Positions 4,544 to 24,630 of a stretch of DNA of 24,630 nt are shown here, piece by piece. Source of the DNA: a virus. Lineage: Duplodnaviria; Heunggongvirae; Uroviricota; Caudoviricetes. The translations under genes were made by a program, and so were the position numbers. The notes below the pieces were generated by a model. The model saw only the letters and a program-made list of their open reading frames with translations. It made no database searches and was not told where the DNA came from. The stretch lies in IMG/VR virus record IMGVR_UViG_2923318301_000004; one strand, given 5' to 3'. The stretch's first letter is position 1; the number at the start of each line of letters is the position of its first letter.

Positions 4544-4605
4544 TAGCAACATGCCGTCCTGGGGGCGGCAATTATTATCCCGGCCGCAATATGAGGGAAT
4601 GCAGA

Positions 4606-5883
4606 ATGATTTCACGCTGGAAATGGATGCTGAAGCAGACAATTAAAAAACTATGGTTCAGGGCAACGTTATTCGCAATTGTCGCGATAATAACGGCCCT
4701 TTTATCAATTCTTTTTAAATCAATGATACCTGAGTCGGTTTCCGTGAAGGTTGGTGCGGAAGCAGTCGATAACATTCTGAACATACTGGCATCGAGTATG
4801 CTGGCAGTGACCACATTTTCGCTGAGTATCATGGTCACAGCCTACGGTTCAGCCACTACTAATGTGACTCCCAGAGCTACGCGTTTAGTTGTTGAAGACG
4901 TCACCACACAAAATGTACTGGCCACCTTCATCGGTTCTTTTCTCTTCAGTCTGGTAGGGATTATTGCCCTCAATATGGGAGCTTATGGAGAAAGGGGGAG
5001 AGTCATTTTATTCATTGTCACACTGGTTGTCATTGCCTTAATCCTCATCACATTGCTTCGCTGGATACAGCATTTGACCTCTCTGGGGAGGGTTGGTGAG
5101 ACAACGGCACAAGTAGAACAGGCGGCCATCGAAACATTTATTGCGAGAGCAAGAAATCCCTGTCTCGGTGGATATCCATGGCTTGAGAACAATGAACAGC
5201 CGAAAGGAACGGTTGCAGTTTATCCGAAGAAGATTGGCTATGTTGAATATATTGATATGGTGAAACTTAGCAAGCTGCTGACCAATGATCCCCGTCATGT
5301 ATACCTCGTGGCGCAGCCAGGCAGTTTCATACATCCGTCCATGCCAGTTTTGTACCTGAGTCAGGGCCAGGAGTCGTCAATCAACACCGATTTACTTGAG
5401 ACGATTATTGTCTCGGATGCACGTTCATTTGCTCAGGATCCTCGATTTTGTCTTAGCGTCATGGCCGAAATAGCCTGCCGGGCCCTTTCCCCTGCAGTGA
5501 ACGATCCTGGAACCGCCATTGATGTCATTGGCAGAGGTGTTCGTATACTTTCCACTTACGCGCAGAATAAATCTGATGAAATAGAAGTGAAATATCCTTC
5601 AGTACATGTTGCACCACTTCAGAATAACGATCTACTGGAAGACTTTTTCTCACCTGTCGCGCGCGATGGTGCCAGTATGAGGGAGATTCAGATAAGAGTC
5701 CTTAAAGGACTGTCGATGCTGAGTAAAGGTTGGCCTGAGATATTTGCTGAAGCCGCACATACCCTGGCATTTGAAACATTAGAGCATGCAACTCGTGCTG
5801 ACCATATAGATTCTGATAGATATCTAATAAAATCAACTTATTATAATTTATTTAGTGGCGAATATTCTAATAAAAAAACATAG
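4606..5883 (+). CDS. Membrane protein, DUF2254-like (function unknown)
   Basis: ORF with N-terminal transmembrane segments and a soluble C-terminal domain. Start placed at ATG 4606 (MISRWKW...) because GAGGGA lies 7 nt upstream; the six-frame track starts 15 nt earlier at 4591. The DUF2254 assignment is from memory of the family and is uncertain. Confidence 0.55.
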   Translation: MISRWKWMLKQTIKKLWFRATLFAIVAIITALLSILFKSMIPESVSVKVGAEAVDNILNILASSMLAVTTFSLSIMVTAYGSATTNVTPRATRLVVEDVTTQNVLATFIGSFLFSLVGIIALNMGAYGERGRVILFIVTLVVIALILITLLRWIQHLTSLGRVGETTAQVEQAAIETFIARARNPCLGGYPWLENNEQPKGTVAVYPKKIGYVEYIDMVKLSKLLTNDPRHVYLVAQPGSFIHPSMPVLYLSQGQESSINTDLLETIIVSDARSFAQDPRFCLSVMAEIACRALSPAVNDPGTAIDVIGRGVRILSTYAQNKSDEIEVKYPSVHVAPLQNNDLLEDFFSPVARDGASMREIQIRVLKGLSMLSKGWPEIFAEAAHTLAFETLEHATRADHIDSDRYLIKSTYYNLFSGEYSNKKT

Positions 5884-6162
5884 CTGCAGAGCAAGCAATT
5901 CGGTTGTTGGCAAGTCAAGGGCAAAGCATTCGCGTGAGAATGGGCGTATGCTTTGTGCCAAAAGCAAACGTTGCTAATTCTGCACTGTTCAGCGATGGCG
6001 CAGTAGAGACAGGCACTGCCACTGTCCAGTCGGCAAAAGCGAACACTTTGCCACTGCGGGGATAAACTGATTGAAGCTCTCGCGCAAAATCACTTATTCT
6101 TTTGCGTTAATAAAATGTAGGAGATGGGTCATTGATCCTACCCACGTAATATGGACACAGGC

Positions 6163-7029
6163 CTAAGCGAGGTTCTTGTTTTCAAATTGTTCCGGACTGA
6201 GGCCGCCACACCAACTGTGCCGCCGCCACCGATTGTAATCACATTCGATATAATTAAACACCGTTGCCCGCATTATTTCCCGGCTGATAAAGTGTTCTCC
6301 ATGGATACATTCCACTTTCAGCGAATGAAAGAAGCTTTCCACGCAGGCATTATCGTAGCAGCAACCTTTTGCGCTCATACTTCCACGCAGATTATGCCGC
6401 TTCAGTTGCGCCTGATAATCTGCTGAACAGTACTGGCCTCCACGGTCCGTGTGAACGATAACGTTCCGGGGCCTCTTACGCCGCCACAGCGCCATCTGCA
6501 GGGCATCGCAGGCCAGTTGCGCCGTCATGCGTGGCGACATTGACCAGCCAATAACGGCACGTGACCACAGGTCAATGACCACTGCCAGATACAGCCAGCC
6601 TTCATCTGTACGTAAGTACGTGATGTCTCCTGCCCACTTCTGGTTCGGGCCACTGGCGTAAAAATCCTGCTCCAACAGATTTTCTGACACAGGCAGGCCG
6701 TGTGCGCGGTAGCTGACCGGGCTGAACTTCCGGGAGGCCTTTGCCCTCAGTCCCTGACGGCGCAGGCTTGCCGCCACGGTTTTTACGTTAAAGGGGTAAC
6801 CCTGAGCACGCAGTTCATCCGTCAGGCGTGGGGCACCGTAACGCTGTTTTGACCGGGTAAAAGCCGCGAGGACAACGCTGTCGCAGTGTTGGCGGAACTG
6901 CTGACGCGTGCTTATCCTTGTCCGCCGCTGACACCACGTATACCAGCCGCTGCGGGCCACCCGGAGCACGCGGCACATTGCTTTGATGCTGAACTCAGCC
7001 TGATGTTTTTCAATAAAGACATACTTCAT
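6163..7029 (-). CDS. insF: IS3 OrfB (InsF) DDE transposase
   Basis: 288-aa [35 protein letters not shown]...; DDE motif region WAGDITY...HTDRGGQY...[12 protein letters not shown]. Confidence 0.9.
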
Positions 7030-7325
7030 TTCAGGCGCTTCGCGAAGTATGTCGCGGCCTTTTGGAGGATAGCCAGCTCTTCATCCCGTTCTGCCAGCTG
7101 GCGTTTGAGACGTGCAATCTCGGTAGACATCTCCAGTTCACGTTCAGAAGACGTCTGCTGATTTTGCTGTTTACTGCGCCAGTTGTAGAGTTGTGATTCA
7201 TACAGGCTGAGTTCACGGGCTGCGGCAGTAACACCGATGCGTTCAGCAAGCTTCAGGGCTTCACTGCGAAATTCAGGCGAATGCTGTTTACGGGGTTTTT
7301 TACTGGTTGATACTGTTTTTGTCAT
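7026..7325 (-). CDS. insE: IS3 OrfA (InsE)
   Basis: [54 protein letters not shown]...; start taken at the internal Met (MTKTV) rather than the ORF-track Met three codons upstream; overlaps insF by 4 nt (frameshift window). Confidence 0.88.
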
Positions 7326-7391
7326 GTGAGTCACCTCTGACTGAGAGTTTACTCACTTAGCCGCGTGTCCACTATTGCTGGGTAAGATCAC

Positions 7392-8451
<1,060 letters not shown>

Positions 8452-8455
<4 letters not shown>

Positions 8456-8869
8456 TGCCACTGCTGGATAAGCTGCGTGAGCAGTACGGGGTCGGACCGC
8501 TATGCAGCGAACTGCATATTGCCCCGTCAACGTATTACCACTGTCAGCAACAGCGACATCATCCGGATAAACGCAGTGCCCGTGCGCAGCGCGATGACTG
8601 GCTGAAGAAAGAGATACAGCGCGTATACGATGAAAATCACAAGGTATACGGTGTGCGTAAAGTCTGGCGTCAGTTGTTACGGGAAGGTATCAGAGTGGCC
8701 AGATGCACTGTGGCACGTCTCATGGCGGTTATGGGACTTGCCGGTGTTCTCCGGGGTAAAAAGGTCCGTACGACCATCAGCCGGAAAGCCGTTGCCGCAG
8801 GCGACCGCGTAAACCGTCAGTTCGTGGCAGAACGACCTGACCAGCTGTGGGTGGCTGATTTTACTTACG
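8452..8869 (+). pseudogene. IS629 OrfB transposase, 5' exon (interrupted by group II intron)
   Basis: [34 protein letters not shown]...QLWVADFTY then diverges at the intron 5' end (GTGTG at 8870). Confidence 0.8.
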
Positions 8870-9540
8870 GTGTGCCCGGAGTTCAGGGCGGGCATGGATG
8901 CTTAAATGAACCGCGAGTCTGTCTGGAATATTGAGCCGGTAACTCACGATGAGAAACCCAACAATCCCACCGGGTGTGACGGTGGAGAACCTGAGCGGCA
9001 GTGACCTGCGGCATGCCCGCAGGGTGATGTAACCCGCTGACAACGGGGATTGAGGCGAGATCACTAAGCCGAGATGATCCTCAAGGTTAAGTACTGAAAG
9101 GCTGAAGAACATGAACCCGTTAATCCGCCTCTGTGGGTTGAAAACGTCACCACGGCCTACGTGATCTGACAGGCCGTGCAGGAGGAACTGGCAGTGATAC
9201 GTAAGCACTGCCGGTCGAAGGTGTTTTGACATGTATGCGAAACACCGGGGCAGCAGCGTCTATCACGCTTGCGTTGCTGACTTCTGCCAACTTGCGGCAA
9301 GCAAGGATAAAGAGTGCGACGGGCAGCCTCCTCAGTATGCCTGAGTCCAGGCAGGTAAACCGGGGAAGGTCAGCGACGGATGTTAAGGGGGCATGGCTCC
9401 GATGACGCGCTGGCTGGCGGAGCTTCCGTAGTAGTCCGCGATGGGGAAAGCCCATTACATGGCGAAGGGAAGCAGTTTGAATGTGTTTGCGACGTGAATT
9501 AACTGACCTAACGAGGTGAAGACCTTTGATAATCAGCGAA

Positions 9541-11049
9541 ATGCAACGCAAGCTTGCCACATGGGCAGTCACCGATCCGTCCCTACGGATTCAACGGCTG
9601 CTGCGTCTGATAACACAACCAGAATGGCTGGCTGAAGCGGCGCGGATCACGCTTTCATCAAAGGGGGCCCATACCCCCGGCGTTGATGGCGTGAACAAAA
9701 CAATGCTACAGGCCAGACTGGCTGTTGAGCTGCAAATCCTCAGGGATGAATTACTCTCAGGCCACTACCAGCCCTTGCCCGCCAGACGGGTTTACATCCC
9801 TAAAAGCAACGGCAAACTGCGACCACTGGGTATCCCCGCGTTGCGGGATCGTATTGTTCAGCGGGCCATGCTGATGGCGATGGAGCCGATATGGGAGAGT
9901 GATTTTCATACGCTCTCATATGGCTTCCGGCCTGAGCGCAGTGTCCACCACGCGATCCGCACGGTGAAATTACAGCTCACAGACTGTGGTGAAACCCGGG
10001 GACGCTGGGTGATTGAAGGCGACCTGTCCAGTTACTTCGACACCGTACATCATCGACTGCTGATGAAGGCTGTACGCCGCAGGATCAGTGACGCACGTTT
10101 CATGACTCTGCTGTGGAAAACCATCAAGGCGGGACATATCGATGTCGGTCTCTTTCGGGCGGCCAGTGAAGGTGTGCCACAGGGCGGTGTTATATCGCCG
10201 CTATTATCGAACATCATGCTGAATGAGTTCGATCAATACCTGCATGAGCGCTACCTGAGCGGGAAAGCCAGAAAAGATCGGTGGTACTGGAATAACAGTA
10301 TCCAACGGGGCCGAAGTACGGCGGTCAGAGAAAACTGGCAGTGGAAACCCGCGGTGGCGTACTGCCGCTATGCCGATGATTTTGTCCTCATCGTCAAAGG
10401 CACCAAAGCACAGGCGGAAGCCATCAGGGAGGAGTGTCGGGGTGTGCTCGAAGGCAGTCTGAAACTCAGGCTGAACATGGATAAGACTAAAATCACCCAT
10501 GTTAATGACGGCTTTATCTTTCTGGGGCACAGGATCATTCGCAAACGCAGTCGTTATGGCGAGATGCGAGTGGTCTCAACGATCCCGCAGGAGAAAGCCA
10601 GAAACTTCGCCGCATCGCTGACAGCACTGTTATCAGGCAACTACAGTGAAAGCAAAGTCGATATGGCTGAACAACTCAACCGAAAACTGAAAGGCTGGGC
10701 CATGTTCTATCAGTTCGTTGATTTTAAGGCCAAAGTCTTCAGTTATATCGACCGTGTCGTGTTCTGGAAGCTGGCTCACTGGCTGGCCCGCAAATACCGT
10801 ACAGGTATCGCTTCCCTGATGAGGTGGTGGTGTAAATCACCGAAACCGGGTCAGAGCAAAACGTGGGTTTTATTTGGTAAAACCAATCACGGCAAGCTCA
10901 GCGGCGAAATACTGTACCGGTTGGTGGGGCAAGGCAAGAAGCTGTTCCGCTGGCGGCTACCCGAAGGTAATCCCTATCTGAGGACGGAGACCAGAAACAC
11001 GTATACATCGCGCTTTACAGAAGTGGCAATGGCGTTCGCCAGCATTTAA
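9541..11049 (+). CDS. Group II intron-encoded protein (reverse transcriptase/maturase)
   Basis: RT motifs in order (RPLGIPALRDRIVQ; SYGFRPERS; YCRYADDFVLIV) followed by a maturase (X) domain; start assigned to the first ATG (MQRKLATW...) rather than the TTG at 9526 used by the ORF track. Confidence 0.85.
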   Translation: MQRKLATWAVTDPSLRIQRLLRLITQPEWLAEAARITLSSKGAHTPGVDGVNKTMLQARLAVELQILRDELLSGHYQPLPARRVYIPKSNGKLRPLGIPALRDRIVQRAMLMAMEPIWESDFHTLSYGFRPERSVHHAIRTVKLQLTDCGETRGRWVIEGDLSSYFDTVHHRLLMKAVRRRISDARFMTLLWKTIKAGHIDVGLFRAASEGVPQGGVISPLLSNIMLNEFDQYLHERYLSGKARKDRWYWNNSIQRGRSTAVRENWQWKPAVAYCRYADDFVLIVKGTKAQAEAIREECRGVLEGSLKLRLNMDKTKITHVNDGFIFLGHRIIRKRSRYGEMRVVSTIPQEKARNFAASLTALLSGNYSESKVDMAEQLNRKLKGWAMFYQFVDFKAKVFSYIDRVVFWKLAHWLARKYRTGIASLMRWWCKSPKPGQSKTWVLFGKTNHGKLSGEILYRLVGQGKKLFRWRLPEGNPYLRTETRNTYTSRFTEVAMAFASI

Positions 11050-11053
11050 ATGG

Positions 11054-11087
11054 AGAGCCGGATGCGCTGAAAGGTGCACGTCCGGTT
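11054..11087 (+). ncRNA. Group II intron domain V (catalytic hairpin)
   Basis: GAGCCGGATGCGCTGAAAGGTGCACGTCCGGTTC: about 34 nt, AGC triad near the 5' end, 2-nt bulge, GAAA tetraloop, immediately after the IEP stop codon and about 50 nt from the intron 3' end. Confidence 0.65.
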
Positions 11088-11111
11088 CGGGGAGGAGAGG
11101 CAGGGAAATAG

Positions 11112-11612
<501 letters not shown>

Positions 11613-11654
11613 GTTCACAGATAAAACACTCTCCAGGAAACCCGGGGCGGTTCA

Positions 11655-12792
11655 CTCATCTGCCGCTCTACCGCATCCCTCGACCATAATCCCGACTCAA
11701 TCAACGAACTACAAGCCATCGTCCTGAAGCCATGCCCACAAACCTCGACCTTCGTGTCATACCCCATTACGCGCAAAGCCTTGTTCACCGTATTCTCACT
11801 CATCGGCTTACGTGGATCGTGATCGCCCACAAAAATCAGCTCTCAATTTCCGCTCATGCTTTTGATCTTTTCCAAAATACTTAGGGCCTGCCGCGACAAA
11901 GGTACAAGGTGTGGTGTCCGCATCTTCGAGCCACGCTGAGAATGCTTGACTCCTTCCAGTTGCTCACGCTCACCTGGGATTGTCCACATAGCCGTTTCAA
12001 AATCTACTTCTGACCAGCGGGCAAAATGCAGCTCGCTCGAACGGATGAAAACCAATAAAGTGAGTTCAACCGCCAGCCGAGTTAACGGTCTGCCAGAATA
12101 GTGATCTATGCGATGAAGTAATTCAGGTATACGGTTCAGTTCAAGAGCTGCACGGTGCTGTCTTTTCGCCGTAGCAACCGCACCTGCAATCTCTTGCGCG
12201 GGGTTGTAGTCGATTAAGCCGCTCTGAACGGCAAAGCGCATAATCGCGGTAGTACGCTGCTGTAAACGGGCGGCAACTTCGAGCCGCCCGGATGACTCGA
12301 CTGCTTTAATGGGTACAAGAAGATCCCGCGTCTTCAGTTCCGCAATGTTCCGCTTACCGATAGCAGTAAAGAGATTATCCTCCAGACTTTTCAAAACACG
12401 AGCGCTATGCGATGCCGACCACTTCTGATTGCTGGCGTGCCAGTCTCTGGCGACTACTTCAACGTTATCGCCTCTTGTTCCTGTTCTACCTTAACAGCTT
12501 TCTTGTTTTCACTGGGATCGACACCATTAGCTAAAAGCTTACGAGCCTCATCCCGGCGTGCCCTGGCATCCGCCAACGACACTTCGGGGTATTTCCCCAA
12601 TGCCAGCATCTTCTCTTTACCGCCAAAGCGATAACGTAGCCGCCAGTATTTGGAGCCGTTAGGGTGAACCAGCAAAACCATGCCTTCACCGTCGGTCAGC
12701 TTATAGGCTTTTGCTTCAGGCTTAGCCGAACGAACCTTCACATCACTCAGAGCCATGATGAGTATCCTTTCAAGGGTTCTGTGTGGGTACAA
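11655..12792 (-). pseudogene. P4-type tyrosine integrase pseudogene (frameshifted, C-terminus removed by IS629)
   Basis: Three consecutive minus-strand ORF pieces (12454-12792 N-terminus MALSDVKVRSAKPEAKAYKLTDGEGMVLLVHPNGSKYWRLRYRF...; 11843-12394; 11615-11830) together cover a P4-like integrase but in different frames; the last piece abuts the IS629 end. Confidence 0.8.
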
Positions 12793-12954
12793 ACATTATC
12801 GAACCGGGAAATACCCGCAGTTGTACCCGCATCAGTAAGTTGATGTAGATTGAATCAGGTTGACTTAGGTTGAGTGAAAAAGCGAGGAAAGCCTTGCGGA
12901 TACTGGATTTTAGGCACAAAAAAAGACGTCCGTTGACGTCTATTGATGTTCCGA

Positions 12955-12976
12955 TGGTGCGAAGGCCGGAATAGAA
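12955..12976 (-). other. Degenerate tRNA-Leu (leuX) 3'-end-like sequence; candidate att remnant of a P4-like element
   Basis: Minus strand reads TTCTATTCCGGCCTTCGCACCA, close to the 3' end of leuX as I recall it (TTCGAGTCCGGCCTTCGGCACCA); lies about 160 bp upstream of the integrase pseudogene, as in tRNA-int junctions. Confidence 0.4.
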
Positions 12977-13210
12977 TAACTATATAACTCATTGAACATG
13001 ATGATAAAAATTTTATAGCTTATGACTTGTGCCCCATTTTGTGCCCCCAACAAAATCTTATTGTTGCTAACTAGCACAATAAATGAATTAGCAAGATAGA
13101 GTTGCCTAGTTAGGTTCCGTCTTACAGAGCCTAACCAGAACAACCAAACCTCTGAACCAACCTTGCGCAAGCTAGATAAAGTCATGCTGATTTATTAGGA
13201 CAACAAGCTA

Positions 13211-14143
13211 TTAAATTTCATATTTTGAAATTTCGCTGATTACATCATCCCCATATTTCTTAATCATGGAGGCAAAGAATTTATGTTCAATAAATTTCGC
13301 ATAGCCTAATTCTCCTTTAAGGGTTAGAATTTCTTTCTCAGATAAAACCCCACACACATAATAATGTATTTTACTTCTTAAAAGACGCTTTCTATCACGA
13401 CCTAAAGACAAATAACCATCAGTCGTAATAGTTACACCAGTTACATGTCTATTAAACTTCCTTGAGGTAAAAACTGTTTTCTCATGGTTTATTTTAATAT
13501 TCCTAAGATTTACTACGTTAAGAACTTCCCTTACTAACTTAGGAACATCAAATAAAGCTCCTTTGACTTTGGTGCTAAACGTAAGATCATCAGCATACCT
13601 TGAGTAGGTAATACCCAAATCCTTGCATCTTTTCGATATTTCCTCATCGAAGAAATACATTACTGTATTTGAAATAATGGGAGAAGAAGGTGCTCCAACA
13701 CTTAGGCGTAACGGGCTATTTCTTCTTAACTTCCAGAAGAAAAGATTTTTAAGAACAAAGATATCAGTATCAGTTAGTTCAACGCCATAATCTTTTAAGA
13801 CAGATAAAAGATTATGGGGTTTGATACTCATAAAAAAGTTTTTAAAATCCATTTTAAGCAAATAATCATTATTACAATGCATTAACGCATTAGATCTAAT
13901 ACTTTTATCGGCTTCATAAGCGAAAGCATTTTCATGAACTTTCAAATTAGCCAACATATGATTGATTACTACCTTCTGTAAGGCTTTAACTTGCCTAGCT
14001 GGTTGTGCAATTAATCTATATCCATTACCATTTCTTTTGGCGATAGGATAAATTTTATATCTGCGTGGAATAGTAACAATATACCTTTTAGCCTCTTCTT
14101 CGCTAAGAAAAAGACCTTTTGAAATATAACTTAGCAACTCCAT
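13211..14143 (-). CDS. Retron-type reverse transcriptase
   Basis: About 310 aa, RT domain only (no maturase or endonuclease); motifs SNALMH (NAxxH), FKNFF, VGAPSSP, YSRYADDLTFS (YADD) and NRHVTGVTI (retron VTG); start ATG lies 1 nt after the upstream effector stop (TAGaATG); collinear with Ec86 RT as I recall it. Confidence 0.85.
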   Translation of the reverse strand: MELLSYISKGLFLSEEEAKRYIVTIPRRYKIYPIAKRNGNGYRLIAQPARQVKALQKVVINHMLANLKVHENAFAYEADKSIRSNALMHCNNDYLLKMDFKNFFMSIKPHNLLSVLKDYGVELTDTDIFVLKNLFFWKLRRNSPLRLSVGAPSSPIISNTVMYFFDEEISKRCKDLGITYSRYADDLTFSTKVKGALFDVPKLVREVLNVVNLRNIKINHEKTVFTSRKFNRHVTGVTITTDGYLSLGRDRKRLLRSKIHYYVCGVLSEKEILTLKGELGYAKFIEHKFFASMIKKYGDDVISEISKYEI

Positions 14144-14144
14144 T

Positions 14145-15131
14145 CTAAGCCCCTCCACGCACGATATTGATTTGATTTAGAGCATTTTTCCTTTTTTTTG
14201 CAGTCTCGTCCATATCTTTAGCATCCATACTTAAGTAAGATTGTCGGATTGCAACCTTAATATTCATAGAATCCTTTATTTTACCACTAGCACTGATACC
14301 AAATTTAAGTTTACTCTCTCTATGCCCTCGGGAATAGAAGTAGTCTGTACCACTGTAAGATAATGATGAGGTTAATTTCATCTTTTCAAGCAAATAAAGT
14401 AAACGAGTTATTATTTTTTGTGGCACATCTATATCCATACAGTATAGTGCCCACTCTATTTCGCTTTTCTTGATTGGTTCTGATAAAAGGATTATTTCGT
14501 AAATCAATATAGCTAGGTGCCCAGTATTTTCAGGGTTATATCGCTCCGTTTTTTTTACACGTTTTAATCTAGAATGAATATCATGGTAGATAAGCTCAAC
14601 CTCATCATATTTCATACGATCCGATTTTGGCCATGGATAAACTGATACTGAGGCCTCATCTATTTTTTTAAGATACTCCAAAGGGCCTAAATATATAAAA
14701 GAAGATCTAGCAGGAATATTTTTTCGTTCATTTCCCTCAATCTCCTCAAATGGTGCGACTACATGCAATTTTTGAGCTAGAGACTTCCTATTAACAAATA
14801 ATCCAAGCTCAACTAACGAACCTGCACTTTCTAAACAGATAACAACTAATGTTGAAATATTTGCAATATCATCTTCAAAGCTCATTAGATCTGAATATGC
14901 CCCCTCTCTGAAGTAGTCATGGAAGTTCTCAGCTAAAATAAGAGAATCTGACAATTCAGGTTTGTGGCCTGCTACATAAGTAAATATGTGGTCTCGTACA
15001 CTCATTGGAGTGGAATTTATCGGCCCACCACAAACAAAAATAATAGGAGGCATGAACTGAACAGTGAAATTTGAATATTTCAAATCTCCAAACTGCTCTT
15101 GTAATGCATTCATATATGCAGAATCACTCAC
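14145..15131 (-). CDS. Retron effector, putative nucleoside 2-deoxyribosyltransferase-like (NDT) domain plus C-terminal putative DNA-binding domain
   Basis: 328-aa ORF between the structured non-coding region and the RT; N-terminal region PPIIFVCGGPI...ICLESAGSLVELGLF resembles the Rossmann-like NDT fold with a candidate catalytic Glu; likely GTG start at 15131 with AGGGGGT as RBS (alternative ATG at 15113). AT-rich codon usage like the RT. Confidence 0.6.
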   Translation of the reverse strand: MSDSAYMNALQEQFGDLKYSNFTVQFMPPIIFVCGGPINSTPMSVRDHIFTYVAGHKPELSDSLILAENFHDYFREGAYSDLMSFEDDIANISTLVVICLESAGSLVELGLFVNRKSLAQKLHVVAPFEEIEGNERKNIPARSSFIYLGPLEYLKKIDEASVSVYPWPKSDRMKYDEVELIYHDIHSRLKRVKKTERYNPENTGHLAILIYEIILLSEPIKKSEIEWALYCMDIDVPQKIITRLLYLLEKMKLTSSLSYSGTDYFYSRGHRESKLKFGISASGKIKDSMNIKVAIRQSYLSMDAKDMDETAKKRKNALNQINIVRGGA

Positions 15132-15139
15132 CCTTGTGA

Positions 15140-15420
15140 CCCCCTACTCCAAAAGAAAAGGTGGCTAACCAGCCACCTTCGACCCCTTTACCTAAAGGAT
15201 GCGCTTTAGACTTTCAGCAAGATCCTGAATGGAACGCAGTGGCATGAAGGATCTTGCTGAAAGTGCTAAAGCGCAACCCTAAATGTCCACAATAAATTAG
15301 TGTCTGGCGAAACGCCCGACAAGGATAAACCTGTTATCCCGCGCGTAAAGGTAGGGTTAGGATAGCAAAAGATGCGAGATTTTCAATAAGTAAGCGTACT
15401 GGCTGCCAGCAACCACCTAA
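15140..15420 (-). ncRNA. Candidate retron ncRNA (msr-msd) upstream of the effector/RT operon
   Basis: Non-coding, structure-rich stretch immediately 5' of the effector: long imperfect hairpin 15201-15274 (GCGCTTTAG.CTTTCAGCAAGATCC / GGATCTTGCTGAAAG..CTAAAGCGC), a candidate msd stem; second hairpin 15159-15180. Exact ends and a1/a2 repeats not resolved by eye. Confidence 0.45.
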
Positions 15421-15700
15421 ACCATTGACATTTAAACAAAAATAAATCTAACAATTGAAAGCAATACCTTATTGAATACAGCATTCTTATATCTCTCTTG
15501 ATATCGCAACATCACAATTATCACCGTTAGTGCGGGCAGCCCCGCACGCCTGCCCGCTTCGCTTAACAGACTGGTTTTCATGCACCTCATTAATCGTCTC
15601 AGAAGCCAGCACACAAGGGTTTTCTCGTCAAAAATGGTGCATAAGACTCATGCGTTTTCATGCGCCATAGACATGCACTCATGCGCTCTCATGTCAGCCA

Positions 15701-15739
15701 GGAAAAGGGGGTAAAAAATCCCGGTACTGGACCGGGATT
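15701..15739 (-). terminator. Rho-independent terminator after the sid-psu-ogr/delta genes
   Basis: Perfect 9-bp stem AATCCCGGT / ACCGGGATT with 5-nt loop (15717-15739), followed on the minus strand by a T-rich tract (TTTTACCCCCTTTTTCC); located 20 bp after the ogr/delta stop. Confidence 0.55.
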
Positions 15740-15758
15740 ACGTGGGCGTTCTTTCTAA

Positions 15759-16040
15759 TCAGACAGGAATCTGCTGACGGCTTGACAGTTTTGACGCGGA
15801 GCCATAGCGATTGAGCGTTTTCTGTTGTTTTTCCGGGGATTGTGCTTTGTCTGATAGCTGTTCATTGCGCCGGGGTTTCATGATTATCTTATCCACACTC
15901 TCCAGTGCCGTAAATGTGCAGGAACATTCCAGATTCTGGCACTGATACCACGAGCGTTTAACTGACGGAGCTTCATAGGCTGCTGTTCTGGCGTGTGCAA
16001 CTGTACCGCATTCCGGACATTTAAGTGCCATTAATATCAC
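15759..16040 (-). CDS. ogr: Ogr/Delta-family zinc-finger late-gene transcriptional activator
   Basis: ALKCPECGTVAHARTAAYEAPSVKRSWYQCQNLECSCTFTALESVDKIIMKP has the CxxC-(22)-CxxxxC pattern and spacing of P2 Ogr/P4 Delta; start may be the internal Met at 16031. Confidence 0.8.
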   Translation of the reverse strand: MILMALKCPECGTVAHARTAAYEAPSVKRSWYQCQNLECSCTFTALESVDKIIMKPRRNEQLSDKAQSPEKQQKTLNRYGSASKLSSRQQIPV

Positions 16041-16588
16041 TCCTGTATATCGTTAATGTCATTCAGGCGTTGCTGAAAACGCAGATGTTGTGCCGGGGTG
16101 TAAGAACCCTGGCAATCACGAATCATCCCGGGGTCAGGCATCAAACCGGATTCATCCAGGATCTCACGATAATCCCCGGCAATTTCAGGCGGTGTTATTG
16201 CCAGCTGGCGAACCAGAGCACTGCGTAATATACGGGACGCAACGTCAACCCCTCCGCGCCCCTTCAGGAACGGAGCCAGTGCAGATGTCAGGGCTGCCCC
16301 ATTCGCCTGCATAAAATTGCTGAGAGCGGCTTCTGTGCAGGCCTCCATCAGTAAATGCTGCGAGTAAATGCATTCGCGCGCAGCACAGTTAATTTGCCAT
16401 TTCAGCACATCCAGACGTTCCCGCAGTAATTCGAGCTGTCGGGCATAATCTGCTGGTTTTTCTGTGGCAGCGAGGAGAGATGTTATCTGTTGTTCAACGG
16501 CTTTTCGGCTCTCATTATGTCCGGCCCACAGAATACGGGCATTCCGAAAACTGGTAAGTGCCTGGTCAGGCGTGCCTCGGGCCGTCAT
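16037..16588 (-). CDS. psu: Psu-like protein (P4 polarity suppression / capsid decoration)
   Basis: 183 aa; segments LELLRERLDVLKWQINCAARECIYSQHLL, FMQANGAALTSALAPFL and YTPAQHLRF resemble P4 Psu as I recall it; start overlaps the sid stop. Confidence 0.65.
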   Translation of the reverse strand: MTARGTPDQALTSFRNARILWAGHNESRKAVEQQITSLLAATEKPADYARQLELLRERLDVLKWQINCAARECIYSQHLLMEACTEAALSNFMQANGAALTSALAPFLKGRGGVDVASRILRSALVRQLAITPPEIAGDYREILDESGLMPDPGMIRDCQGSYTPAQHLRFQQRLNDINDIQE

Positions 16589-17328
16589 ACTGCTTTCTCC
16601 TTCTCAGCAAGTTCCTGACGAACCTTAATTTTATGCATAGCTGCCGGAGAGAGTTGATTACTGAAATCCAGACGCGCCGCATAATCCGGGGCAACTCCCG
16701 CCAGTTTAAACACCGGGTCCTGCTCAGGCATCGCATCGTTAGCCAGAGCCGGTCTGGTGATATGTTTATGAATAAAGTCTTTCAGCACTGTGTCCGGGTC
16801 ATTAACTGAATTCACCACACCCACAACGGCACTGGCTTCCCGGCCCATTGTGGATTTAAGCAGGCTCAGCGTCTGAATAAGCGCTTTTCCATGCGACTGC
16901 ATAAAATCCTCCCAGATTTGTTTTGCGCGAATATCCACAAGAATGTTATGCGCGTGGATATACTTTCCGGCTAATTCTGCAGCTTTCTGCGGCAAAAGTG
17001 CATTTTCGCTTTCCTGAGCCGCCAGCAGCTCATCAAAATCCTCAAGCGTTTCTCGTCCCAGCGCAATTTCCGTGCGCAGTTTTTTCATTTCCTTTGAGAC
17101 CACGCCCTGACTTTCACGAAACAGCGTGCGCCACTCCTCATTCAGTGTGTTCGTCGTGGCTTCCATTTCAGCGCGACGCTGGCGGATTGTCGCAATATTA
17201 TCCGCTGCCGCTTTCTGCTGACGACGTGCTTCAAGCCATGCGTTTCTGGCTGTGTTCATGGTTTCCAGTGCCCGCTGCGTTACAGCCGGAAAAGTGGAAA
17301 GGTTGTTATTCACTGCGGTGTTGTTCAT
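16585..17328 (-). CDS. sid: Sid-like protein (P4 capsid size determination external scaffold)
   Basis: 247 aa, strongly helical and charged; EWRTLFRESQGVVSKEMKKLR and position directly upstream of psu match P4 Sid as I recall it. Family call rests mainly on gene context. Confidence 0.55.
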   Translation of the reverse strand: MNNTAVNNNLSTFPAVTQRALETMNTARNAWLEARRQQKAAADNIATIRQRRAEMEATTNTLNEEWRTLFRESQGVVSKEMKKLRTEIALGRETLEDFDELLAAQESENALLPQKAAELAGKYIHAHNILVDIRAKQIWEDFMQSHGKALIQTLSLLKSTMGREASAVVGVVNSVNDPDTVLKDFIHKHITRPALANDAMPEQDPVFKLAGVAPDYAARLDFSNQLSPAAMHKIKVRQELAEKEKAV

Positions 17329-17506
17329 GACTTCTCCTGTCGGGTTGGTTCGTTACGTCAATTGTGTCGTGGCTGACACAAGCACACTATCGGTGCTCAG
17401 TGTGTGGTGGCTGGCACAACGGACGCTTGCGGTTATTCAGACGTGGCTATGAAAGCCAGCCAGATAAAAATGCCCTCTGTTTCAGTCTGCTTTATGTCCC
17501 TGATGC

Positions 17507-17694
17507 GGTGGAACAGGTGAAACATGTGTTACAGCTTTGTTTTATAAGGCATTTATATACACTGCACCGGTGGAACATCGCGGGTAACAAGGTGGAACAG
17601 CGGATTGGCTGGCGTTACATCTGTTCCACCTCACTATTTCAGAAGGTGGAACAGGTTCAGCCCTGTAAAATACGGTTGTTCCACCTGTTTCACC
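17507..17694. repeat. Iteron cluster: 8 copies of TGTTCCACC / GGTGGAACA (two are TGTTTCACC variants) in both orientations
   Basis: Copies at 17507, 17516, 17569, 17591, 17622, 17646, 17677, 17686; in the non-coding gap between the alpha-like primase gene and sid; closely resembles the TGTTCACC octamers of P4 ori/crr that are bound by alpha. Confidence 0.6.
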
Positions 17695-17728
17695 TGTTAC
17701 CCTTAATAAATAAGACTCACGCAAAGCC

Positions 17729-20401
17729 TTAACCCGGCACCTCGCTGTTGAAGACATAGAGCCTGCGGGGATTCATCTCTGGCGGGCGAATGGTTGTCTG
17801 GAGTTTGCCATCAGTGGAGGGCAGCAGGTATCCACGATCTGCGCACAGACGCGCCACCTTGCGCGGGTCAAATCCCCTGCAGATTTCTTTCCAGCCGGAC
17901 GGCATGACATAGAACGTAGTGACAGCTTCCGTGCCCTGCGCGGTACTGCCTTTCTCCACCCTGCGCCAGCCCACCATATTGCCGGGGCGGTTGCGCTCGT
18001 CATACCAGTCTGCAAAGCGGCTGTACTGATTCGCGGTAAAGAAACTGCGAACCTGCTCCAGTGCGGCGATATCTTCCTGATTGGCGGTGTGCCCGCGATC
18101 TTTCAGCCATGCGTTCAGGCAGACGCGGGTTGCCCGCAGTGCTTCACCCTCAGGCCAGCCGGTGATACCCAGACGGGTTGCCAGTTCACCTGCCATCGCC
18201 ACCAGAGCAAAGCGGTTCACAGCCCGGCCCACCTGATTGCCTGCATCTTTCGGAGTCAGGGCGGCAGCATATTCCTTCATCAGCGATTTTGCCTGTGCCG
18301 TTAGTCCGTTAAGATCAGCGGTCAGTGCTTTCAGCCACTCCCGGAACGGCGAACCGTAGTAGCAGGACGTGGCCCATTCAAGATGCTCTGCCAGAGCCTT
18401 GCCGCTGTCGAAGCCGTGCAGCTCCTCAAAAACGCCAAACTTCCCGGAATCGCTGGGGATCTGGATCATCCTGACTTCCATCCCGGCAAAAGTACGCTCA
18501 CCGGCCTTTGCCGCATGTTCGGTCAGAGACAACTCGCCAGTTGAAAAGAACAACAGGCGCCAATGCTTACGGGTACGCAGCTCACCGTCCGTACCGGCAC
18601 GGCCCTTGCCCTGACCGTTTGCCAGCATGTAGGCGATATTGCCTGCCTCGCGTCCGTCAACTTCCCGGATCTCATCAAGCATCATGGCGGCATCGTTGCG
18701 GCGGCTGGCGCATCCCTCCAGCGCGTTGCCGGTGGCCCGCCATGTCTGCCAGTAGTCAGGCCCGCCGCAGACGGAGGTTGCCGCTTTCATGGTGGTGGTC
18801 TTACCGTCTGTCGATTCCCCTTTGAGGTGGTAGCCGCCGCCGTCCATACCAACCAGCCGTAACAGTGGTGCAGCAAAGGCCAGGCTGACAGCAAATGCCA
18901 CGCGGGAGTTGCCGGTACAGTAGCGGGATACATGCTCCCGCCATTCCTCTGTTGTGCCCGACACGCGGAAATCACGCCCCTGCACGGAAGTGGTCTGGAG
19001 AATGACACCCTCTGCACCTTCACCGCTGACCTCATCCTGCAGGACGTAAACCTGACCATGCCAGCCAGTACGACTGACGCAGGTCACGCGGCGTTCCGGT
19101 TTACACAGTGAGATATATTCCATCAGGCGTGCGCGTGCCTCACCGGTGGTGCTGATATAAGACAGCCCGTTAACCAGCAATACCCGGCGCAGTTCCTCAC
19201 CACTGCCGCTCAGCATTTCCATCGGCATCGCCCAGCGGCGACACTCACCCCACGTATCTTCCCATTCCAGCAGTCGTCCGAAGTTACCGCCATCGGCATC
19301 GCAGGTGATTGCCGTCACGCGCAGCGGGCTGCATATTTTGACGTTCTGGATCTCCGTCTCACCGTTGCGCTGTACCTGCTTTTCATACCAGAGATATTCC
19401 TGGGTAAGACGGAACCCGTGCGGCAGTTGCGTGCGGCCCTCCCCGCACAGCACCAGACCGTTACGAAAGGCTTCACGGGCGCGGGTAATACCGTGCTCCC
19501 GATGGAAGTCATTCCAGTCGGCCTTAATCTCTCCCGGTGGCAGCGTCATCCAGCCGCCAACAGCTTTTGCCGCCCGTTCAGCAAAGGCTCTGCCGGGATT
19601 CTCACCCCCGTCCTGAAAATCGTTATCACCGGCGATGATAATTTTTACCTCAGGCCAGCGTGCCCGCAGCGACTGCGCCACATTGGGCAGGTTGCCCGCA
19701 GATATGGCAGCCACTACGCATCCGGCAGTGAGCTGACTTACCGTCAGCGCCGTAGCGTAACCTTCGGTAATCACCACCTGTACCGGTGGTTCAGACGGTA
19801 ACGGGCTGAGCGACACAAACGCGCCTTTCATCGTGCTGCCGGGCAGTATGCTTTTTTCACCCGTCGGGGCGATAAGCTGTGCACCAGTCACGGCTCCGGT
19901 GTTGGTCGTGAGTGGTAACAGCAGGGAACCGGCAGGAAAATCCTTACCGCTGATATGCTGCACGCTTCCGGTCAGAGAGGCCGGGTATCCGGCGAACCCT
20001 TTTCCTGTCAGATAGGCGCTTTCTCCCGTGTGGCTCTCTTTCATCAGCGCCGCCACGGTAAGACCCATGTCGCGTTTAGGGGCTTTTTTTCTGGCAGGCT
20101 TAACAGGCAGTTCCTGCACATCCGGCACATTAAGCACCTGCGCCACCTCCTGCGCAGCCTTTCTGACGCTGTAACCGGTTACGAGCTTAACCAGATCCAG
20201 ACCGTCACCATTGCCACACTGGCTGCAGATCCACGTCCCGCGCCCGTCAAGGTCATCAAGGCGAAAACGATCCTTGCCCCCACATTTCGGGCAGGGACCG
20301 TGCCTGCCGTTTTCAGGTACATCAATACGCAGCATCTGGAGAATAACGGGCCATTTCCCCCGTGCGGCGGCTGAAATCTGCGTAACCGTCTGTATTGTCA
20401 T
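17729..20401 (-). CDS. P4 alpha-like primase-helicase (zinc-binding N-terminus, TOPRIM primase, C-terminal P-loop helicase)
   Basis: 890 aa; CPKCGGKDRFRLDD...WICSQCG zinc ribbon; TOPRIM-like VVITEGYATALT...IIAGDNDFQDGGENPG; Walker A GESTDGKTT. Confidence 0.85.
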   Translation of the reverse strand: MTIQTVTQISAAARGKWPVILQMLRIDVPENGRHGPCPKCGGKDRFRLDDLDGRGTWICSQCGNGDGLDLVKLVTGYSVRKAAQEVAQVLNVPDVQELPVKPARKKAPKRDMGLTVAALMKESHTGESAYLTGKGFAGYPASLTGSVQHISGKDFPAGSLLLPLTTNTGAVTGAQLIAPTGEKSILPGSTMKGAFVSLSPLPSEPPVQVVITEGYATALTVSQLTAGCVVAAISAGNLPNVAQSLRARWPEVKIIIAGDNDFQDGGENPGRAFAERAAKAVGGWMTLPPGEIKADWNDFHREHGITRAREAFRNGLVLCGEGRTQLPHGFRLTQEYLWYEKQVQRNGETEIQNVKICSPLRVTAITCDADGGNFGRLLEWEDTWGECRRWAMPMEMLSGSGEELRRVLLVNGLSYISTTGEARARLMEYISLCKPERRVTCVSRTGWHGQVYVLQDEVSGEGAEGVILQTTSVQGRDFRVSGTTEEWREHVSRYCTGNSRVAFAVSLAFAAPLLRLVGMDGGGYHLKGESTDGKTTTMKAATSVCGGPDYWQTWRATGNALEGCASRRNDAAMMLDEIREVDGREAGNIAYMLANGQGKGRAGTDGELRTRKHWRLLFFSTGELSLTEHAAKAGERTFAGMEVRMIQIPSDSGKFGVFEELHGFDSGKALAEHLEWATSCYYGSPFREWLKALTADLNGLTAQAKSLMKEYAAALTPKDAGNQVGRAVNRFALVAMAGELATRLGITGWPEGEALRATRVCLNAWLKDRGHTANQEDIAALEQVRSFFTANQYSRFADWYDERNRPGNMVGWRRVEKGSTAQGTEAVTTFYVMPSGWKEICRGFDPRKVARLCADRGYLLPSTDGKLQTTIRPPEMNPRRLYVFNSEVPG

Positions 20402-20781
20402 ACTTCCCCCTGATACAACGTCACACCGGTACTGCAGAAGTCATCAAAGGCCGCCGGAAGCGTGCGGTACATCTCCGCCATCACTTCACAGCCGCGCGCG
20501 GTCAGTACCGGCGGCGCGGTCAGCAGTGACGGCTCCAGCATGTCAGTCAGCAGTGCCAGCGCGGCAGCGGCGCCCTGTGCTTCGCCGTACTCGTTAATCA
20601 GTACGCACTCGATATGCAGCGCAATGGCCATTTCAATACGCTCCACCGTCAGGCTGTGCGGACCATACTGATCACTGCCAGTTTCGTTCAGCATTTTCTG
20701 CCGCCATGCTGAAGCAATAGCCCGCCGGTAAAGCGCGGTGGTCATTTCTGCCGGGAAAATGGAAACCTGCGGCTGGTTCAT
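20398..20781 (-). CDS. Hypothetical protein (P4-like left-operon gene preceding alpha)
   Basis: 127-aa ORF whose stop overlaps the alpha start (ATGA); position corresponds to the epsilon/orf151 region of P4; no motif recognised. Confidence 0.45.
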   Translation of the reverse strand: MNQPQVSIFPAEMTTALYRRAIASAWRQKMLNETGSDQYGPHSLTVERIEMAIALHIECVLINEYGEAQGAAAALALLTDMLEPSLLTAPPVLTARGCEVMAEMYRTLPAAFDDFCSTGVTLYQGEV

Positions 20782-21062
20782 CTGGCACCTCCTTCAATCA
20801 GTGCGCAGCTGTGTGCAATATCCGTCAAATCTGCCAGCAGGTACTCCATCAGCGCGGCGACACCATGCGCACAGCCAGCGTCCAGTGCTCCGGCCTGAGA
20901 CGGGTATTCAGAAAAGAGAAGCTGGAGCATGTCGCAGGCATTTCTTGCGCGGGTCAGTTTTCCGAAACTGTCCTCTGACAACCCATAGGCAAAAGCACCG
21001 GTATTGTGTTTTTCAGGCAAAGTGTGGCCCTGAGCACCGTTGTGCCCGTTTGAAATATTCAT
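20778..21062 (-). CDS. Hypothetical protein
   Basis: 94-aa ORF, 4-nt overlap with the downstream ORF (translational coupling); no motif recognised. Confidence 0.4.
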   Translation of the reverse strand: MNISNGHNGAQGHTLPEKHNTGAFAYGLSEDSFGKLTRARNACDMLQLLFSEYPSQAGALDAGCAHGVAALMEYLLADLTDIAHSCALIEGGAR

Positions 21063-21093
21063 CGTGGATTACTCCGTTTTCAGCGGTATTTTG

Positions 21094-21453
21094 TCAGAGA
21101 AACTTTGAATAGTGACCGTCGTCAGGCTCAGCAGAACGCCGTATGCTACGCTCCCGCCAGCGGATAAATAGCACAGACGGATGCAGTGTCAGCGGGCCGG
21201 AACCACTACCGCCAGCAGGAGCTGGTGCAGGCTTCAAGAGCGGTACATCAAACAGGCGCGTATACCGCTGTTCAAACCATGCCAGAGGGCAGGAAGAAAG
21301 CTGGTTGTCGCTGTCATGACGTATCAGCACTTCACAGCTGAATTCAGGATTAACCAGCGCCACAGAGGGCGAGGCTTCTATTAATCGGATAATCGTGACC
21401 GTCCAGCCACGTTCATGCTGCCAGCGTTCGCCGGGGTGCGGATAATTACGCAT
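21094..21453 (-). CDS. Hypothetical protein
   Basis: Start taken at ATG 21453 (MRNYPHPGERW...), which overlaps the stop of the upstream small ORF (ATGCGTAA); the ORF track begins 10 codons earlier. Confidence 0.4.
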   Translation of the reverse strand: MRNYPHPGERWQHERGWTVTIIRLIEASPSVALVNPEFSCEVLIRHDSDNQLSSCPLAWFEQRYTRLFDVPLLKPAPAPAGGSGSGPLTLHPSVLFIRWRERSIRRSAEPDDGHYSKFL

Positions 21454-21622
21454 GTTCACCTCCGCAGGGAATGCGCCCGGCAAAGCTCAGTACATAGTCC
21501 GGGGCAAGTCTGCGCCGCGCTGACCGCTCGTTATCTGCGGTGATCCTTAACATCACAGGACGGGCATTGCGTTGACTGCGGTTGATCGCCGCAAATAACC
21601 AGGTACACTTCTGTTTAGCCAT
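21446..21622 (-). CDS. Hypothetical small protein (58 aa), first gene of the alpha operon
   Basis: ATG at 21622 preceded by GAGGTAACGAAG; this frame is the 3' part of a longer 244-aa ORF on the track that I consider spurious upstream of this start. Confidence 0.4.
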   Translation of the reverse strand: MAKQKCTWLFAAINRSQRNARPVMLRITADNERSARRRLAPDYVLSFAGRIPCGGEHA

Positions 21623-21695
21623 CTTCGTTACCTCATTTAGCGGATTGGTCAGAAGCCCGGTTAGTGTTGCTGCACTGTCGGGCTTCGCACTCACA

Positions 21696-21793
21696 AGGTG
21701 AATCGCACCTTTAATTTTAAAGCTACCCTTAAGTGAATCGCACTTCAAGCTTTTTATTATCATTTTTTTTGCATATACTGAATCGCACCTAAC
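21696..21793. promoter_or_regulatory. Divergent promoter region with three copies of the near-palindromic motif (G)TGAATCGCAC(C)
   Basis: TGAATCGCAC at 21699, 21734 and 21779; the third copy sits between a TATACT -10-like hexamer (21774-21779) and the RBS of the plus-strand small gene. Confidence 0.45.
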
Positions 21794-21809
21794 GCGAGGA
21801 GATCCAGTA

Positions 21810-21995: not shown

Positions 21996-22057
21996 ATAGA
22001 GAAGCCAACAGACGTTCTCTCTGTTTCCATGTTAATTTCAGTAAGCGACAATATTTT

Positions 22058-22091
22058 TAAGCCCACAAATTCATTATGTCGGGCTTTTTTA
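22058..22091 (+). terminator. Putative intrinsic terminator after the 61-aa gene
   Basis: AAGCCC...(16-nt loop)...GGGCTT followed by TTTTATT; the loop is long, so this is tentative. Confidence 0.35.
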
Positions 22092-23338: not shown

Positions 23339-23367
23339 TTAAATCTCTCCGCAGCCCCCAATGGTAA

Positions 23368-24630
23368 TTATTTTCCATGCATACGCGCAAAATCATATGG
23401 TGTGACAGATCCATTCTTATTAGCATCAATATAATCAGCCCACCACTGCAGCATTAATCTTCTTTCTTCAAGATATTCGGAAGTATGCATATATGAACCT
23501 TTCACATTTTTTCGTTCAACGTGGCTTAACTGTCTTTCAATGGCATCATCATTCCATAGTTTCGACTCACTTAGCGCACCACGCGCCATAGTTCTAAACC
23601 CATGACCACATACTTCAGTTTTCGTATCATATCCCATTACACGTAAGGCGTTATTTACTGTATTTTCACTCATTACTTTTTTAGGATCATGATCGCTGGG
23701 AAATATAACCTCACCTTTACCACTCAAGGCATGTAAACGTTTAAAAATATCAAATGCTTGTTTGCTAAGCGGAACAATATGTTCAGTTTTCATCTTCATC
23801 CCACGCTCAGAGTGTTTTACGCCGGGAATAGGCTTACGAATTCCGGGTATTGTCCACTCGCTTCGTTCAAAGTTAACCTCACTCCAGCGAGCAAAACGCA
23901 TCTCACTTGAACGTATAAATGTGAGTAGCGTTAATTCAACGGCAAGCCGTGTCATTAGTCGCCCTTTATAGCGTGATAGTCTTTCAAGAAGCTCAGGGAT
24001 TCTTTTTGGGGGTAGTGCTGGGTGGTGGGTTGCTTTAACGCTTAAAAGCGCTCCAGCCATATCGCATGCAGGATTTGATTCAAGGAGGTCATTCTGCACA
24101 CCAAAACGCATAATTGCGGTTACGCGCTGCATCAGTCGCTGCGCGACATCATGTTTACCCGCCGTATCGACAGCTTTGATTGGATTGAGAAGCTGGCTGG
24201 TTCTCAACGTTCTGGCATCGATTTGACCTATCGAGGGGAAAATATACTGCTCAAGTGTCAGCAGAACACGACGGCTATGATCTTCGCTCCAAGTAAGGTT
24301 ACTTGCGTGCCATTGCCTTGCGATAGTTTCAAATAAATATGCCCCCTCAATTTCAGCTTGTGCCCCCTTTTGCTCAGCTTTGGGGTCAATACCCTGAGAC
24401 AACAATTTCTTTGCTGCATCGCGCTTACCCCGCGCTTCAGCCAAAGTGACCGTCGGGTATACACCAAAAGCGAGTCGATCTTCCTTTTTGTCAGAGGGGC
24501 GGCGATATTTCATGCGCCAGTACTTAGAACCTTTAGGGGAGACCTCAAGATACAAACCGCCTCCATCAGCCATTTTATAAGCTTTCTCTTTCGGCTTTGC
24601 GGTCTCTATCTGGCGAGCGTTGAGTTTCAT
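23368..24630 (-). CDS. int: P4-type tyrosine integrase (intact, 420 aa); start codon at the window edge
   Basis: N-terminal AKPKEKAYKMADGGGLYLEVSPKGSKYWRMKYR... and C-terminal catalytic region (HGFRTMARGAL...; ...YMHTSEYLEERR) typical of the P4/IntA family. Confidence 0.9.
   Translation of the reverse strand: MKLNARQIETAKPKEKAYKMADGGGLYLEVSPKGSKYWRMKYRRPSDKKEDRLAFGVYPTVTLAEARGKRDAAKKLLSQGIDPKAEQKGAQAEIEGAYLFETIARQWHASNLTWSEDHSRRVLLTLEQYIFPSIGQIDARTLRTSQLLNPIKAVDTAGKHDVAQRLMQRVTAIMRFGVQNDLLESNPACDMAGALLSVKATHHPALPPKRIPELLERLSRYKGRLMTRLAVELTLLTFIRSSEMRFARWSEVNFERSEWTIPGIRKPIPGVKHSERGMKMKTEHIVPLSKQAFDIFKRLHALSGKGEVIFPSDHDPKKVMSENTVNNALRVMGYDTKTEVCGHGFRTMARGALSESKLWNDDAIERQLSHVERKNVKGSYMHTSEYLEERRLMLQWWADYIDANKNGSVTPYDFARMHGK

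Follow-up and report, generated by a model that had tools for sequence, protein, structure and literature searches.

The right-hand part of the window (the whole 24,630-nt stretch of DNA that was analyzed) carries a P4-like satellite, whose genes and parts given below all lie on the minus strand. The integrase is intact (23368..24630; Pfam Arm-DNA-bind_3, Phage_int_M and Phage_integrase) and shares 72% identity with P4 Int over 410 aa; comparison with the genome of Escherichia coli M217 shows that the integrase start codon reaches the end of the window, its A being the final base. Regulatory genes separate the integrase from the alpha primase (17729-20401; Pfam Zn_Ribbon_Prim, Toprim_3 and DUF927), which is followed by a sid-like gene (16585-17328; weak Pfam Psu match), psu (16037-16588; Pfam Psu) and delta (15759-16040; Pfam Ogr_Delta), i.e. 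the P4-like core set of int, alpha primase, psu, delta and sid(-like) is present in full. Only int aligns to P4 DNA, the rest of the satellite showing no detectable similarity to it. A P2/P4-type cos site was not found within the window, as judged from searches for the 19-nt P4 cos end (up to three mismatches allowed) and from a blastn comparison with the P4 cos region; the satellite may have a divergent cos site.

The cargo next to delta is a retron. Its non-coding RNA region (15145..15352) was recognized by two Rfam matches, both below the gathering score: msr (RF00170) at 15286-15352, with 42.2 bits and an E value of 2.6e-5, and STnc400, a Salmonella sRNA family, at 15145-15281, with 55.4 bits. 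Judged from its position directly beside msr, STnc400 is probably the msd part of St85-type retrons. The effector gene (14145..15131; RefSeq 'retron St85 family effector protein') has no Pfam match, and the reverse transcriptase gene (13211..14158; Pfam RVT_1; RefSeq 'retron St85 family RNA-directed DNA polymerase') is the last gene of the satellite. The assignment to the St85 family thus combines RVT_1 and the RefSeq names of the two proteins with sub-threshold msr and STnc400 matches. Beyond the stop codon of the reverse transcriptase, a non-coding stretch of 240 bp (12971..13210) leads to a 22-mer resembling the 3' end of leuX, which is the subject of this analysis.

On the other side of the 22-mer lies an older, degraded island. 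Its P4-family integrase is a pseudogene (11618..12756, minus strand), the 3' end of which is cut by an IS3-family element according to the RefSeq annotation of M217; the pieces of its reading frame match Pfam Arm-DNA-bind_3, Phage_int_M and, partially, Phage_integrase. The pseudogene begins 199 nt past the 22-mer, and the same core-to-int distance is found in other genera. Insertions are numerous farther to the left. A group II intron of ~2.26 kb resides inside an IS3-family element (8869-11131; ltrA at 9526-11049, Rfam Intron_gpII at 11053-11139), and an ALIL pseudoknot is found at 8410-8526. Strain N385 has the same IS without the intron and M217 has two intron/IS copies, the M217 segment that matches positions 911-11141 being in inverted orientation. 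Next to a remnant lpxM-like acyltransferase gene lies an IS1 copy (143-911) with 100% identity to IS1B of N385, a strain in which that IS1 borders a resistance region (catA1, OXA-1, aadA1 and a class 1 integron).

Sequence and genomic context of the leuX-like 22-mer

A sequence-only reading of this region had quoted, for the interval 12940-12980, a string said to resemble the 3' end of leuX. The string is present letter for letter on the minus strand from 12976 to 12955 (TTCTATTCCGGCCTTCGCACCA, 22 bases; TGGTGCGAAGGCCGGAATAGAA on the plus strand). As a reference we used leuX of M217 (locus L001, 32396-32480), an 85-nt gene with anticodon CAA whose 3' end reads ...GGTTCGAGTCCGGCCTTCGGCACCA. When this gene was aligned with both strands of the window, the best local alignment fell at 12955-12976, where the last 23 nt of leuX match at 20 of 23 positions, on the same strand as leuX and as far as the terminal CCA, in keeping with what the reading had claimed. 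The true 3' end, TTCGAGTCCGGCCTTCGGCACCA, is represented in the window by TTCTATTCCGGCCTTC-GCACCA, with two substitutions and one deletion: both substitutions are G to T changes in the T-loop part, and the lost base is a G of the acceptor-stem GG.

The alignment alone is weak evidence, marginally above chance: its score of 29 compares with 23.9 +/- 2.0, and a largest value of 30, for 60 mononucleotide shuffles, i.e. an excess of ~2.5 SD. The 11-mer TCCGGCCTTCG has a single exact occurrence in the window, and none of 100 shuffles contains it. An ungapped pattern search of the whole window with the 23-nt leuX end and up to three mismatches gave no match, because of the indel in the copy, and a scan at the Rfam gathering threshold gave none at 12955-12976. 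No tRNA gene was predicted by ARAGORN over the whole window, so that the leuX-like stretch is no more than a gene fragment. Comparative and positional evidence, and not the alignment score, gives the copy its significance. Note that an 81-aa open reading frame (12940-13185, minus strand) runs across the 22-mer and part of the adjoining non-coding stretch; similar frames over the corresponding arms of P4-type elements are labelled 'integrase' or 'hypothetical protein' in RefSeq (P4p05 in the P4 record), and frames over P4-type attachment sites are probably spurious gene calls.

The window is E. coli DNA. The region from 12400 to 13500 is 100% identical to ~150 complete E. coli genomes, whose annotation gives an integrase pseudogene on one flank and a 'retron St85 family' reverse transcriptase on the other, and the exact junction is carried by ~150-155 E. 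coli genomes. The P' arm of the satellite, its leuX-proximal P arm or both are matched in 204 genomes, the median number of places per genome being two. An intact leuX with anticodon CAA lies 165 bp past the integrase in M217 (99.94% identity to positions 8842-24630), in the same orientation as the copy. This is the repeat that the sequence-only reading had expected next to the intact integrase, 165 bp past the right end of the window; that the source genome has it too we infer from genomes nearly identical to the window, M217 among them. From the 3' end of leuX to the partial copy, the element spans 11,857 bp.

Three kinds of genome delimit the junction. Firstly, in Res13-Lact-PER04-33 (L002), which has no satellite, the intact leuX is joined straight to TCGGAACATC... 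(the sequence right after leuX being also given as TCGGAACATCAATAGACGTCAACGGACGTCTTTTTTT...), the terminator and the integrase pseudogene. This genome is 99.9% identical to the window up to position 12970, where the identity stops, the 12971..13210 stretch being missing; the unoccupied site of a related strain thus breaks at 12970, as for a precise insertion. Secondly, the right flank of the window recurs in JP538 and N385 beside other P4-like satellites (cargo: SIR2/ATPase and 'ABC-three-component'), and the identity of these genomes to the window also ends at 12970; their junctions read ...TGCGAGTCCGGCCTTC-GCACCA|TCGGAAC..., with TGCGAG on the left. Thirdly, the same satellite with the same TTCTATTCCGGCCTTCGCACCA is found in 19SZHZ803Rt (L005) and in an IMG/VR contig (L008) against another right flank, namely the native leuX terminator region. 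Together, these comparisons place the breakpoint inside 16 nt (12955..12970, minus strand; TCCGGCCTTCGCACCA) that are common to all distal junctions compared: TTCTAT belongs to the satellite, and everything rightward from CACCA is older DNA.

The sequences on either side are organized like P4 attachment-site arms. In P4, the 20-bp attP core (GAGTCCGGCCTTCGGCACCA) is a perfect match to leuX (NC_001609/X05947 annotation), the annotated P' repeats GTGGGGGCACAA and AAGGGGGCATAT (L004, 4174-4151) lie 53 bp from the core, and the P side has, upstream of int, a pair of direct repeats and an inverted one. The satellite has two tandem arm-type repeats, TTGGGGGCACAA and AATGGGGCACAA (13027..13050, minus strand), at the same 53-bp distance from the core-equivalent position and, in M217, a P arm with TTGGGGGCATAA, TCGGGGGCATGT and the inverted TGTGCCCCCAAA just upstream of int. 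Arm-type repeats thus flank the core as they do in P4. The stretch between the 22-mer and the pseudogene (12757..12954, minus strand) contains the direct repeats ATGCGGGTACAA and CTGCGGGTATTT (12832-12809, minus strand) and the inverted repeat TGTGGGTACAAA (12782-12793, plus strand), which form a different family with the same layout, that of the P arm of P4. These repeat families identify a satellite P' arm (12971..13210) on one side of the 22-mer and the P arm of the older island on the other. The latter also contains a hairpin, AGACGTCAACGGACGTCT, followed by TTTTTTT (12924..12941, minus strand), a terminator that starts 13 nt past the CCA and that directly follows the intact leuX in the satellite-free strain.

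Could the 22-mer be a chance resemblance to a tRNA end, or a leuX fragment brought in by an unrelated, e.g. IS-mediated, rearrangement and unconnected with the end of the satellite? The modest alignment score and the proximity of IS elements and a group II intron speak in its favor. However, the genomes with an empty site, with other occupants and with another flank all break at this very core, the arm repeats stand at exactly the P4 spacing, and no IS end is found at the junction; we consider the probability of such an origin negligible. The 22-mer is very probably the distal junction, attR (P'-core-B'), of a retron-bearing P4-like satellite of ~11.9 kb inserted at leuX, as judged from these sequence comparisons. 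The view that it is the right-hand junction of the retron element is borne out by the loss of identity of the satellite-free strain at 12970. It is likewise supported that the 22-mer was formerly the leuX-proximal junction of the older P4-family island, since the 199-bp spacer holds the arm-type repeats of that island and the leuX terminator; the sequence-only reading had proposed this too.

We propose that a P4-family tyrosine integrase recombined the attP of the satellite with the last ~20 nt of leuX, which would have left a full-length leuX next to the integrase, beyond the right end of the window, and a partial copy at the far end of the satellite. The left part of the copy (TTCTAT instead of TTCGAG) would come from the satellite's own attP. 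The leuX gene would have been already occupied by the older island, whose integrase is now a pseudogene, so that the partial copy is directly bordered by DNA of that island, first the P arm with the former leuX terminator and then the pseudogene. The satellite and the older, IS-riddled island together make the locus a tandem island array, and the feature at 12955..12976 is an ordinary attachment junction of an established kind that had not been annotated.

Distribution of the single-G deletion

The copy at 12955..12976 is not a perfect repeat: the two junctions do not share a perfect 20-bp core of the kind annotated for P4. The two kinds of difference are distributed differently. The TAT-for-GAG substitutions are specific to this type of satellite. 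Among the distal junctions with the single-G deletion are those of the JP538/N385 type, that of an unrelated ET896 island and that of the true P4 prophage carried by RM14723; in ET896 (L010), the deleted copy is directly followed by a P4-like P arm. The P' arm and core of P4 have matches in 254 E. coli genomes, and 38 of 40 evenly sampled matches are at least one base shorter than the P4 attP. The deletion was confirmed in one P4-type prophage (L013), and the two full-length matches (L011 and L012) both have GG; these three prophages are 2-7% diverged and so do not demonstrate a recent conversion.

Outside E. coli, an exact-pattern scan of one genome per species, which could detect the deleted form only, gave at least 120 matches, nearly all in Enterobacterales. 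The genera among the matches listed include Erwinia, Pantoea, Serratia, Yersinia, Proteus, Photorhabdus, Xenorhabdus, Pectobacterium, Salmonella and others and, among the same matches, the deleted copies adjoin at least six tandem arm-repeat families and have species-specific right flanks. A metagenome scan that was neutral in this respect, being anchored downstream of the P4-type arm repeat and accepting G or GG, gave 109 deleted copies and 10 with GG; the additional sites in the metagenome contigs included no more than two substitution variants.

The gene itself has GG in 5,423 of 5,426 E. coli genomes, and so has the attP of P4. Displaced copies with GG also occur at leuX beside islands that are not of the P4 type: NCTC9080 (L007, 20015-20072) and the IncHI1B plasmid of strain S30 (L259, 5760-5801) both carry the 42-nt copy CCGTAGAAATACGTGCCGGTTCGAGTCCGGCCTTCGGCACCA, one such junction having been captured on a plasmid together with an adjacent P4-family integrase and a BREX system. 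Full-length leuX genes with the single-G deletion are found in E. coli 702/18, BS-04 and O111:H21 15A (L014, L015 and L016, at 15001-15084 in each) and in Pantoea eucrina (L077). In these genes, which RefSeq labels tRNA-Leu, the acceptor stem is broken and no satellite lies alongside; they look like products of excision from a deletion-carrying junction.

The sequence-only reading had called the copy degenerate. It is indeed imperfect, but the random decay that the word implies does not hold, since the substitutions go with this type of element and the loss of the G recurs throughout the family. We tentatively propose, at somewhat less than even confidence, that the single-G deletion is not decay but a systematic signature of the family, present at ~92-95% of P4-family distal junctions at leuX across Enterobacterales, with one of the two consequences set out below: a hostage-type hold on leuX or a shifted position of strand exchange.

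Origin of the missing G

A documented island of this kind is PAI II536 of uropathogenic E. coli 536, which is bordered by 18-bp direct repeats at leuX (PMC3202238, PMC9686529). Like the element in the window, it is a P4-family integrase island with an imperfect distal copy of leuX and an identity that ends at the same G run; unlike the satellite, it is a 100-kb pathogenicity island with another arm-repeat family, TGTTGGTAT, and its distal copy has lost GC, not G. We found this copy, GTTCGAGTCCGGCCTTCG-ACCA, at 22399-22413 of the corresponding locus (L258), followed by the native leuX terminator, and it matches the published 18-bp repeat. The GC that this repeat lacks accounts for the incomplete leuX that remains once PAI II536 has been excised (PMC3202238).

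If the window copy was once a perfect leuX repeat, it would have acquired three private mutations since. Displaced tRNA fragments are free of selection, and the copy in E. coli 536 can be read as further decayed. Such random decay is nevertheless very unlikely: satellites of this type carry one and the same 22-mer whichever of three right flanks they abut, TAT for GAG is specific to the element type, the deletion occurs beside at least six unrelated arm-repeat families in many genera, the neutral scan favored it over GG by 109 to 10, and the extra sites showed two substitution variants only.

On the exact position of strand exchange and on the origin of the missing G we infer what follows from the distribution of the deleted copies and from published experiments. 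The missing G may be encoded in attP, whose core would read ...TCCGGCCTTCGCACCA, with strand exchange within GCACCA, beyond the right end of the G run; leuX would then keep its GG, and the distal copy would inherit the single G of the element. Under this hypothesis a conservative recombinase keeps the G count and no recurrent mutation is required. It accommodates the observation that the deletion tracks the P' flank whatever the right flank, even where the latter is a P arm next to which GG must have stood at the time it bordered leuX (ET896 L010, L024, L119 and L254). The P' arms of the JP538 and P4 types occur with three to four right flanks and nearly always with the deletion. On the other hand, the left block of such an attP would be one base out of register with attB, and the Islander study puts the crossover of this class at the T-/acceptor-stem junction (PMC4383910). 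A circular PAI II536 whose excision has truncated leuX restores the complete gene on integration (PMC3202238), which implies an exchange to the left of the damage. Full-length leuX genes with the deletion in three E. coli genomes and one Pantoea genome also go against this hypothesis, as does the GG of phage P4, the sole free attP to hand. All in all, we regard an attP-encoded deletion as possible but rather doubtful.

That last comparison rests on P4 because it provided the only free attP in the phage collection. No free circular or attP form of the satellite was found in the E. coli genomes, phage records and contig collections searched. Synthetic attP sequences (P' arm, core and P arm) of the window satellite and of the JP538 type were joined in none of 5,426 E. 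coli genomes; the sole near-match, in ET896, proved to be the tandem junction where another island meets a P4-like satellite. Plasmid matches to the integrase were captured chromosomal fragments or other types of islands, not free satellites, and none of the 240 contigs retrieved had the terminal overlaps that mark a circular element.

Alternatively, the G would be lost after integration, in a recurrent and site-specific manner, e.g. by faulty cleavage and religation by the integrase at GG. Exchange would then occur at the T-/acceptor-stem junction, the standard position for the crossover, attP would have GG, as P4 does, and the deletion would arise at attR. It would persist by blocking excision, or by making excision leave a defective leuX, and nearly all long-resident elements would consequently show it. 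The GG of the P4 attP and the published experiments on PAI II536 favor this scheme, as excision leaves leuX incomplete and re-integration of the circle restores it, and so does the distal copy of strain 536, which equals the published 18-bp repeat. It is likewise favored by the rare deleted leuX genes that lack an adjoining satellite (three E. coli genomes) and resemble an excision product, and is consistent with the occurrence of GG and deleted P4-type elements on the same right flank (L012 versus L013) and with the frequency of unoccupied leuX genes that have GG and the native terminator (~10% of genomes). Its difficulties are that the same 1-nt deletion must recur in very many independent lineages and genera while almost no other mutations appear in the copies, and that the mechanism is hypothetical. 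We hold a loss after integration to be plausible, at a confidence that falls a little short of even.

The GG in the displaced copies of the non-P4-type islands (L007 and L259) is equally compatible with an attP-encoded deletion and with a loss after integration. The further idea that the deleted form is an old allele of the chromosome, passed on together with the native flank, is contradicted by the ~10% of E. coli genomes in which an unoccupied leuX combines GG with the native terminator.

Relation to known systems and consequences

The satellite has its target, the leuX 3' end, and the arm-repeat motif GGGGGCA(C/T)A in common with phage P4, whose attachment sites at leuX were reportedly described by Pierson and Kahn in 1987. 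It differs from P4 in its core, P4 having GG in a perfect 20-bp match and the window copy having TAT for GAG and a single G, and in the placement of its variable 'hotspot' cargo, which lies beside attR and not beside int. The satellite has the gene order int, regulators, alpha, sid-like, psu, delta, retron, attR, unlike P4, JP538 and N385, in which int is followed by cargo, then psu/delta/sid, and so forth as far as alpha and attR. The retronphage phiR73, for its part, integrates at selC.

Retrons are found as cargo in the variable hotspot of P4-like satellites, between psu/delta and int (Rousset et al. 2022, PMC9122126). The window prophage is alike in having a retron as cargo; its cargo is, however, split from int by the att site and adjoins the integrase pseudogene of the neighboring island, a placement by which a search for cargo 'between psu and int' could be led astray. 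According to the Islander principle, a regenerated tRNA gene and a displaced 3' fragment mark the ends of an island, and tandem arrays are common (PMC4383910). The window is a textbook instance of such tandem islands at a tRNA gene, with no essential difference.

The junction itself is expected biology; it sets the exact outer boundary of a retron-carrying satellite present in ~150 clinical E. coli genomes. The most interesting residue of the analysis is the single-G deletion found throughout the family. If the deletion arises after integration, at or near the cleavage site, excision would be blocked or would leave leuX defective; should this be true, satellites and islands would be locked in place, with the host tRNA practically as their hostage. 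Alternatively, the accepted attP core and strand-exchange position of the P4 family would be off, the exchange taking place in GCACCA. The deletion may bear on whether defence-carrying satellites and pathogenicity islands still excise cleanly, and on whether leuX is damaged when they are lost, as documented for PAI II536.
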